Of a stretch of 7,147 nt of DNA, positions 1,027-1,260 are shown one piece after another. This DNA comes from a virus. Where the stretch lies: UHGV virus genome UHGV-1395224; one strand, 5' to 3'. Under the pieces are notes generated by a model. It searched no databases. It had not been told where the DNA came from and was given only the letters and a program-made list of their open reading frames with translations. Every line of letters begins with the position of its first letter. The first letter of the stretch is position 1. The position numbers were made by a program, and so were the translations under genes.

Positions 1027-1260
1027 CCTCCTCTACCTCTCTACCTAATCATCTTTCAGGTCAGTAATGGCGCGGCTTTCAGATGGGTAGAGGGCTTTCG
1101 GGGCCCTCTACCCATCCTCTACCCGCCCCTCACAAATGACCTTAATCATGGTGGAGGAGGTAGAGGGCTTTTATTTGCCTTCTACCTGGCCCTCTACCTG
1201 CTTATCATATTGAATAATATATATTTATTTTCTTTAGGTAGAGGAGGTAGAGGGCTTTTG
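1027..1260. repeat. Iteron array, putative replication origin: about 10 copies of GGTAGAG(G) in both orientations plus an AT-rich spacer
   Basis: CTCTACC at 1031-1037, 1039-1045, 1106-1112, 1117-1123, 1192-1198 and degenerate TTCTACC at 1180-1186. GGTAGAG at 1086-1092, 1159-1165, 1237-1243, 1246-1252. A 19-bp repeat GAGGAGGTAGAGGGCTTTT occurs at 1154-1172 and 1241-1259. Inverted pair GGGTAGAGGGC (1085-1095) and GCCCTCTACCC (1103-1113). AT-rich stretch 1201-1236. Lies directly 3' of the primase-helicase stop. Confidence 0.7.

Follow-up and report, generated by a model that had tools for sequence, protein, structure and literature searches.

An iteron cluster with a GGTAGA core as the probable replication origin of a Gram-negative phage-inducible chromosomal island

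The stretch of DNA considered here (the window) is one strand of the virus genome UHGV-1395224, 7,147 nucleotides in length, in which a dense cluster of short repeats occupies positions 1027-1260. We consider this segment, with a likely functional extent of approximately 960-1267, to be very probably the origin of vegetative replication of a small phage-parasitising element in E. coli, a Gram-negative phage-inducible chromosomal island (PICI). The repeats are arranged about an A+T-rich spacer and conserved in related islands, they lie beside a gene whose product is homologous to the alpha protein of phage P4 and to the Rep protein of Staphylococcus aureus pathogenicity islands (SaPIs), and the segment is homologous to an experimentally defined origin, that of the island EcCICFT073. 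An origin had already been proposed from the letters of the window alone (the original prediction), and this interpretation is supported by the position-for-position homology of the segment to the EcCICFT073 ori, in which cores, order and orientation are alike. The accompanying term "iteron-type origin" is apt insofar as the iteron cluster is real, but does not hold in the sense used for plasmids, as the sites are short and face both ways, DnaA boxes are lacking and the initiator is a helicase. The kind of origin, its architecture and its function in a close relative are already known, and the window supplies another instance.

All nine exact copies of GGTAGAG in the window fall within 1031-1252, four on the plus strand (starting at 1086, 1159, 1237 and 1246) and five on the minus strand (1031, 1039, 1106, 1117 and 1192), against an expectation of 0.27 from dinucleotide-preserving shuffles; none of 200 shuffles reached nine, in agreement with the initial judgement that such repetition is far beyond chance. 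The hexamer core GGTAGA occurs ten times, in every case inside 1032-1251. The earlier count of nine perfect copies and one degenerate copy was right as to the former but one short as to the latter, since two sites depart from the heptamer by one mismatch (GGTGGAG at 1150-1156, plus strand, and GGTAGAA at 1180-1186, minus strand), giving 11 sites in all. Tandem pairs are spaced by 8-12 bp, approximately one helical turn, and the iteron nearest to the helicase gene lies 16 bp from its stop codon (1268-1270). The identical 19-bp copies at 1154-1172 and 1241-1259 form part of a 23-nt unit (1150-1172 and 1237-1259) that contains one mismatch; they do flank the A+T-rich stretch, as had been stated, but two inverted iterons (1180-1198) also stand between them. 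The 11-bp inverted pair is likewise as described, with exact arms at 1085-1095 and 1103-1113, and is contained in a 69-nt stretch (1065-1133) that, as single-stranded DNA, folds into a hairpin with a 15-bp stem (-20.7 kcal/mol, z = -5.1). The predicted cruciform is not a conserved requirement. Relatives keep the inverted arrangement of the iterons, but the complementarity beyond them only in part: a perfect extended palindrome occurs in the window and the island of E. coli LH85-a, and a degenerate one in Rosenbergiella and Symbiopectobacterium, in which inverted iterons persist, and a cruciform was accordingly rejected as a functional requirement.

The 36-bp A+T-rich spacer proposed at the outset was recovered at 1201-1236 and, by nearest-neighbour energies, has a lower duplex stability than any other part of the window at the 30-, 36- and 50-bp scales, its dG over 36 bp of -32.9 lying approximately four standard deviations under the window mean (-49.2, standard deviation 4.1). 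The iterons on its two sides are oppositely oriented, those at 1180 and 1192 being on the minus strand and those at 1237 and 1246 on the plus strand. Neither a DnaA box (allowing up to one mismatch), nor an integration host factor consensus, a GATC site or 13-mers are present in 980-1270. A scan of the whole window against Rfam (E <= 1) returned only two eukaryotic microRNA precursor families, at 1175-1257; these matches score 31 bits, compared with gathering scores of 46.5-80, and were discarded as an artefact of the inverted iterons around the spacer.

Table 1. Features of the replication region and of its surroundings, in window coordinates.
Feature	Position	Strand	Remarks
Single-stranded DNA-binding protein of the island, replication module	305..727	-	Pfam SSB, E 2.7e-16
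Next gene of the operon, 85 aa, phrog_1231	724..981	-	Ribosome-binding site at ~985-1000 bounds the origin; hypothetical protein in all relatives
101-aa open reading frame, not a gene	1012..1317	+	No Pfam or PHROG match; not annotated in RefSeq relatives
Distal tandem iteron pair, GGTAGAG at 1031-1037 and 1039-1045	1031..1045	-	8-bp spacing; position and orientation kept in all aligned relatives
Conserved non-iteron block, reading CTGAAAGCCGCGCCATTACTG in the orientation of the helicase gene	1060..1082		Conserved columns in the 8-variant alignment
Head-to-head iteron pair, 11-bp inverted repeat GGGTAGAGGGC / GCCCTCTACCC	1085..1113		Exact arms; 7-nt centre
Single iteron GGTAGAG	1117..1123	-	11 bp from the iteron at 1106-1112
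Double-iteron unit GGTGGAG + GGTAGAG, then GGCTTTT	1150..1172	+	9-bp spacing; one of two 23-nt copies, 96% identical to 1237-1259
Iteron pair at left edge of spacer, GGTAGAA 1180-1186 and GGTAGAG 1192-1198	1180..1198	-	Points away from spacer
A+T-rich spacer, presumed DNA-unwinding element	1201..1236		36 bp, 89% A+T
Double-iteron unit at right edge of spacer, GGTAGAG at 1237 and 1246	1237..1259	+	Points away from spacer; 16 bp from helicase stop codon
Initiator gene, Pri-Rep / P4 alpha-like superfamily 3 (SF3) helicase, 583 aa	1268..3019	-	Walker A GDGGSGKST at nt 2048-2074
C-terminal domain of initiator, presumed winged-helix iteron reader	1286..1561	-	aa 487-578; match to PDB 1KA8, E 2.8e-7
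N-terminal domain of initiator, Toprim-like fold	2630..3019	-	aa 1-130; highly variable between islands
AlpA	5180..5437
Tyrosine integrase	5439..6680

Functional evidence comes from EcCICFT073, in which a pri-ori fragment maintains a temperature-sensitive plasmid and the corresponding pri-Δori and Δpri-ori fragments do not (Fillol-Salom et al. 2018, PMC6092414). When the primers of that study are mapped on CFT073, the Δori construct is found to end 4 nt after the stop codon, and the construct containing ori to end approximately 20 nt into the next open reading frame (ORF); because of these ends, the functional EcCICFT073 ori corresponds exactly to the intergenic segment, 288 bp long and following the helicase gene, that is homologous to window 960-1267. 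The original prediction proposed that the fragment be tested for replication with the helicase supplied in trans, an experiment already performed on this close relative, since the CFT073 protein provided in trans supports protein-dependent replication of a cosmid bearing ori, the EcCICFT073 pair serving there as a conditional replicon (Brödel et al. 2022, 10.1101/2022.09.30.509847). The two regions resemble one another closely: in each, approximately 11 copies of a repeat with a GGTAGA core lie directly 3' of the helicase gene, the sites follow one another in the same order and orientation, an A+T gap succeeds the first tandem pair and the flanking genes are the same, the shared gene order being DUF4222 gene, helicase, origin, 85-aa ORF and SSB. 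The initiators are 95-97% identical over residues 150-583. The origins differ in that one window site beyond the spacer has the opposite orientation to its CFT073 counterpart, and the islands in that the one in the window occupies the portal gene of a prophage and not a chromosomal site.

Conservation of the cluster extends well beyond this pair. GGTAGA cores occur at matching places and in matching orientations in CFT073, UM146, O157:H7, RMDEC465, AVS0542 and LH85-a, and in a cross-genus alignment of eight variants from Escherichia, Shigella, Rosenbergiella and Symbiopectobacterium the iteron-core columns are more conserved (0.905) than the other columns of the origin (0.668; Mann-Whitney p = 5.6e-16). 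The wider survey covered 84 loci, drawn from IMG/VR and from a collection of species-representative genomes; the scan of the genome collection, made with single-protein patterns that reach close relatives only, gave 6 loci, and the alignment-based scan of viral contigs 80. GGTAGA is the commonest hexamer in the 300 nt following the helicase gene at 73 of the 84 loci, with 10-13 copies where approximately 0.14 would be expected. Among 57 distinct origins of this class, the first core lies a median of 16 nt past the stop codon, the first pair is spaced by 9 bp and is followed by a gap with a median length of 40 nt and 78% A+T, and the median number of cores is 11, most commonly in the orientation string <<><<<>><>>. 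Core, copy number, orientation pattern and A+T gap are kept as the flanks drift. With more distant helicases the layout is retained and the repeat changes: Serratia and Morganella relatives carry TGTTCA(C/T), which is the P4 type-1 repeat, four IMG/VR loci carry GGTATAC, and two loci have a strong terminator and no repeats (the loci with other repeats or none in the origin position are L010, L011, L091-L094, L088 and L090). A search for distant DNA matches in the phage collection returned none, and the plasmid collection yielded a single match, CP088587.1 (locus L095). This record, 32.5 kb long and submitted as a plasmid, contains a related island and HK97-type head genes beside pntB, which is a chromosomal gene; it probably represents a piece of chromosome and, as pntB is also present, provides no evidence for a natural plasmid with this origin.

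Judged by sequence homology, the protein encoded next to the cluster is a helicase that carries a winged-helix DNA-binding domain at its C-terminus. Pfam identifies D5_N, DUF5906 (the SF3 ATPase) and Pox_D5 domains and NCBIfam assigns it to TIGR01613 (phage/plasmid primase, P4 family); it is 41% identical to P4 alpha across alpha residues 321-762 (E 1e-114), and its ATPase core matches the cryo-electron microscopy structure of SaPI5 PriRep (7OLA, E 7e-15). The PDB entry matched by its C-terminal domain, 1KA8, is the crystal structure of the origin-binding domain of P4 alpha. Across 31 distinct C-terminal domains, residues split cleanly according to iteron class, and some positions that are invariant in the 25 distinct domains of the GGTAGA class are different in the TGTTCA class. 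This correspondence fits the C-terminal domain as a candidate iteron reader, for which it is supporting evidence and not proof.

Several points weigh against the assignment of the cluster as an origin, or against parts of it. In the cis test on EcCICFT073, deletion of ori "significantly reduced" colony numbers but did not abolish them (PMC6092414). All of the functional tests concern the EcCICFT073 allele, to which the intergenic DNA of the window is 61.5% identical overall, and the middle section of the window origin is arranged slightly differently. Because the iteron classes coincide with clades, phylogeny confounds their association with the C-terminal domain. The bases that follow the core, GG(G/A) in the window and (C/T)A(G) in CFT073, are uniform within one origin and differ between origins; they differ even between O157 and CFT073, which share 98% identity in the C-terminal domain, so that reading of these bases by the C-terminal domain is unsupported, they are probably not recognised by the protein, and the extended GGTAGAGG form may not be what it reads. 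The repeat unit first given as GGTAGAG(G) describes the exact copies in this window, but the core of the family is GGTAGA and the trailing G(G) is specific to the allele. Finally, the primer might come either from the host or from the N-terminal Toprim-like domain.

With these reservations, a mechanism for the proposed origin may be outlined. Induction by a helper phage and excision of the island would be followed by production of the P4 alpha-like SF3 helicase from the gene that ends 16 bp from the cluster. Its C-terminal winged-helix domain would bind the 11 GGTAGA(G) iterons, arranged as tandem pairs and one head-to-head pair, and hexamers might assemble on the diverging pairs at 1180-1198 and 1237-1252 that flank the 36-bp spacer. 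The spacer would then melt and the helicase load itself with no separate loader, after which the SSB of the island could coat the single strands and priming be provided by the host or by the small N-terminal domain of the protein. Binding of the initiator to the repeats, melting of the spacer and self-loading are steps that we infer from the models for SaPI Rep and P4 alpha.

SaPI origins have reportedly been described by Ubeda et al. Their iterons lie directly downstream of rep about a central A+T region, with at least two oppositely pointing iterons on each side, and SaPI Rep recognises them through a C-terminal winged helix, melts DNA independently of ATP and loads itself (Qiao et al. 2022, PMC9371898). 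The window shares with the SaPIs the position of the origin directly downstream of rep, the presence of 6-12 short iterons and an A+T region, at least two oppositely pointing iterons on either side of that region, and a helicase initiator with a C-terminal winged-helix reader. It differs in iteron sequence and in host, and in that its A+T region is off-centre, beside the gene-proximal pair; outside the ATPase core, no sequence similarity between the initiators is detectable.

The parallel with P4 gives rise to an alternative in which the cluster would be a cis enhancer resembling crr and synthesis would start at a second site elsewhere in the island. P4, too, has a cis element directly 3' of its initiator gene, with short 8-bp repeats in both orientations; the helicase and origin-binding domains are related at the 41% identity given above, and the Serratia and Morganella relatives of the island use the type-1 repeat itself. 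In P4, however, the element directly 3' of alpha is crr, and ori lies 4.5 kb away, so that the statement in the original prediction that both P4-like and PICI origins sit directly 3' of the helicase stop codon holds for PICIs but not for P4. Furthermore, one 120-bp unit of crr is resembled by the distal half of the region in PICIs, which consists of two iterons, an inverted iteron, CTGAAA, approximately 30-37 nt and a tandem pair. Against an enhancer alone, the window and complete related islands have one cluster and no second: all ten GGTAGA cores of the window, and 11 of the 12 in complete EcCICFT073, fall in one region. The cluster also possesses its own A+T spacer between diverging iterons, like that of P4 ori, and in EcCICFT073 the helicase gene and this segment alone replicate a plasmid. 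We therefore regard an enhancer without origin function as very unlikely; in the island, a single cluster has both an A+T core resembling ori and a distal half resembling crr. The window departs from P4 also in its repeat, which is GGTAGAG and not the type-1 repeat TGTTCACC, and in that its protein has no equivalent of the 320-residue N-terminal primase region of alpha.

Iterons of plasmids such as pSC101, R6K, F and P1 are approximately 17-22 bp in length and for the most part directly repeated; DnaA boxes accompany them, and the protein that binds them is of the Rep_3 type and depends on DnaB and DnaC. The window has in common with these plasmids repeated initiator-binding sites beside an A+T-rich unwinding element, but its sites are of 6-8 bp and face both ways, DnaA boxes are absent and a helicase serves as the initiator; a domain search found no Rep_3 protein among the proteins of the window.

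The placing of the cluster between two co-oriented genes of one operon, together with the short inverted and tandem repeats typical of operators, might instead suggest regulatory sites, for example for AlpA or PerC, that control read-through from the helicase gene into the SSB and packaging genes. A scan of both strands of 700-1500 nevertheless found no sigma-70-like promoter and no intrinsic terminator, and 11 sites distributed across 220 bp, with an A+T core of 36 bp among them, do not make an operator layout. The class of iteron, moreover, follows the C-terminal domain of the helicase, and the homologous segment has a demonstrated replication phenotype. An operator is consequently a highly improbable reading of these repeats. 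Recognition of the repeats by a small terminase of the island, as in a cosB- or pac-like packaging site, has in its favour that relatives encode their own small terminase and that terminase-binding sites are often short repeats. In complete EcCICFT073, however, the exact lambda-type cosN sequences are near the far end of the island, published cos sites were tested separately from ori, and the layout of the repeats is alike in relatives with or without an annotated terminase gene; a packaging function for the cluster is thus scarcely credible.

The 101-aa ORF called across the repeats is open at this length only in the window and in the near-identical relative AVS0542, which is the argument for a real gene whose repeats would be repeated peptide motifs. 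In O157, RMDEC465, UM146, CFT073 and LH85-a the frame is limited to 69 aa or fewer though the DNA repeats persist, no Pfam or PHROG family matches the product, it is never annotated in RefSeq relatives, and repetition in both orientations is needless for a peptide repeat. The ORF is almost certainly not a gene and, as was suspected when it was first noted, amounts to the repeats read as codons.

With regard to priming, the designation of the protein as a "primase-helicase" in the original prediction is not sustained, since only residues 321-762 of P4 alpha are matched and no catalytic primase domain is detectable. Alpha residues 1-320, the primase region, have no counterpart: the first 136 residues of the initiator show no similarity to that region, the N-terminus has no Pfam or NCBIfam match, and a 105-aa Toprim-like fold stands in its place. 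At the positions of the Toprim catalytic Glu and Asp-x-Asp, the initiator family has an invariant Ala-Gly and a near-invariant Arg-x-Tyr, an assignment that is tentative, being based on motif patterns and not on structural alignment. It is conceivable, though rather doubtful, that the so-called primase of the island does not prime at all, in which case the origin would have to recruit host priming. A candidate signal is the non-iteron block at 1060-1082, which is identical in 30 of the 57 distinct GGTAGA-class origins, has five or fewer substitutions in 46 of the 57, and is better conserved than the iteron flanks. Were host priming indeed recruited in this way, the block could be a host-factor or priming signal and the origin a two-part one, a speculative proposal to which we assign a low probability.

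The helicase gene is itself a mosaic, residues 1-150 (window 2570-3019) being approximately 45% identical to EcCICFT073 and the remainder 95-97%. Its N-terminus matches the LH85-a island, whilst its C-terminal domain and the origin match AVS0542 (99.3%), and other E. coli sequences have the N-terminal module joined to AAA_25/RepA-like helicases. Within the gene, at 1869-1880, lies a 12-mer one mismatch from lambda cosN (GGGCGGCGACCC), as is the case in EcCICFT073.

The value of these observations is mainly one of annotation: in hundreds of E. coli genomes the intergenic region carries no label in RefSeq, and a spurious 101-aa ORF can be called across the origin by gene finders. The origin-initiator pair is already in use as a conditional replicon for phage-delivered gene editing, and in PICI-bearing strains natural variants sharing the GGTAGA core could cross-react with these vectors. 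The comparative data leave the established picture unchanged, and add to it modestly a family core of GGTAGA, at least three iteron classes in one layout and a conserved block inside the origin.

As to its setting, the island belongs to the Gram-negative PICIs and has the portal gene of a prophage as its insertion site. Upstream of the helicase gene are a DUF4222 gene, small ORFs, a Bro-N gene, alpA and the tyrosine integrase gene, so that the gene order and content (integrase, AlpA, Bro-N, DUF4222 protein, helicase and SSB) are those of a PICI, and a complete island of approximately 11 kb is present in LH85-a. PICIs typically measure about 10-15 kb and have an integrase, AlpA and an initiator but neither lysis nor tail genes. 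Islands embedded in their helper, within a late gene of a prophage and with their own initiator and origin, have already been described (PMC10111431), and, judged by its sequence, the island of the window matches these. Adjoining the integrase gene is part of a portal gene of the lambda family (6829-7134, profile positions 157-242). The LH85-a island interrupts the portal gene of a lambdoid prophage and runs in the same direction as the late operon (locus L014, 3730-16311), and the junction between portal gene and island is found in 63 of 5426 complete E. coli genomes. Elsewhere in the window, the palindrome GGTAATTACC occurs twice, 30 bp apart, at 4208-4217 and 4238-4247 (within 4205-4250), its second copy overlapping the start codon of an Arc/YlcI-like ORF (4248-4421); this pair is probably an operator in a divergent regulatory region.
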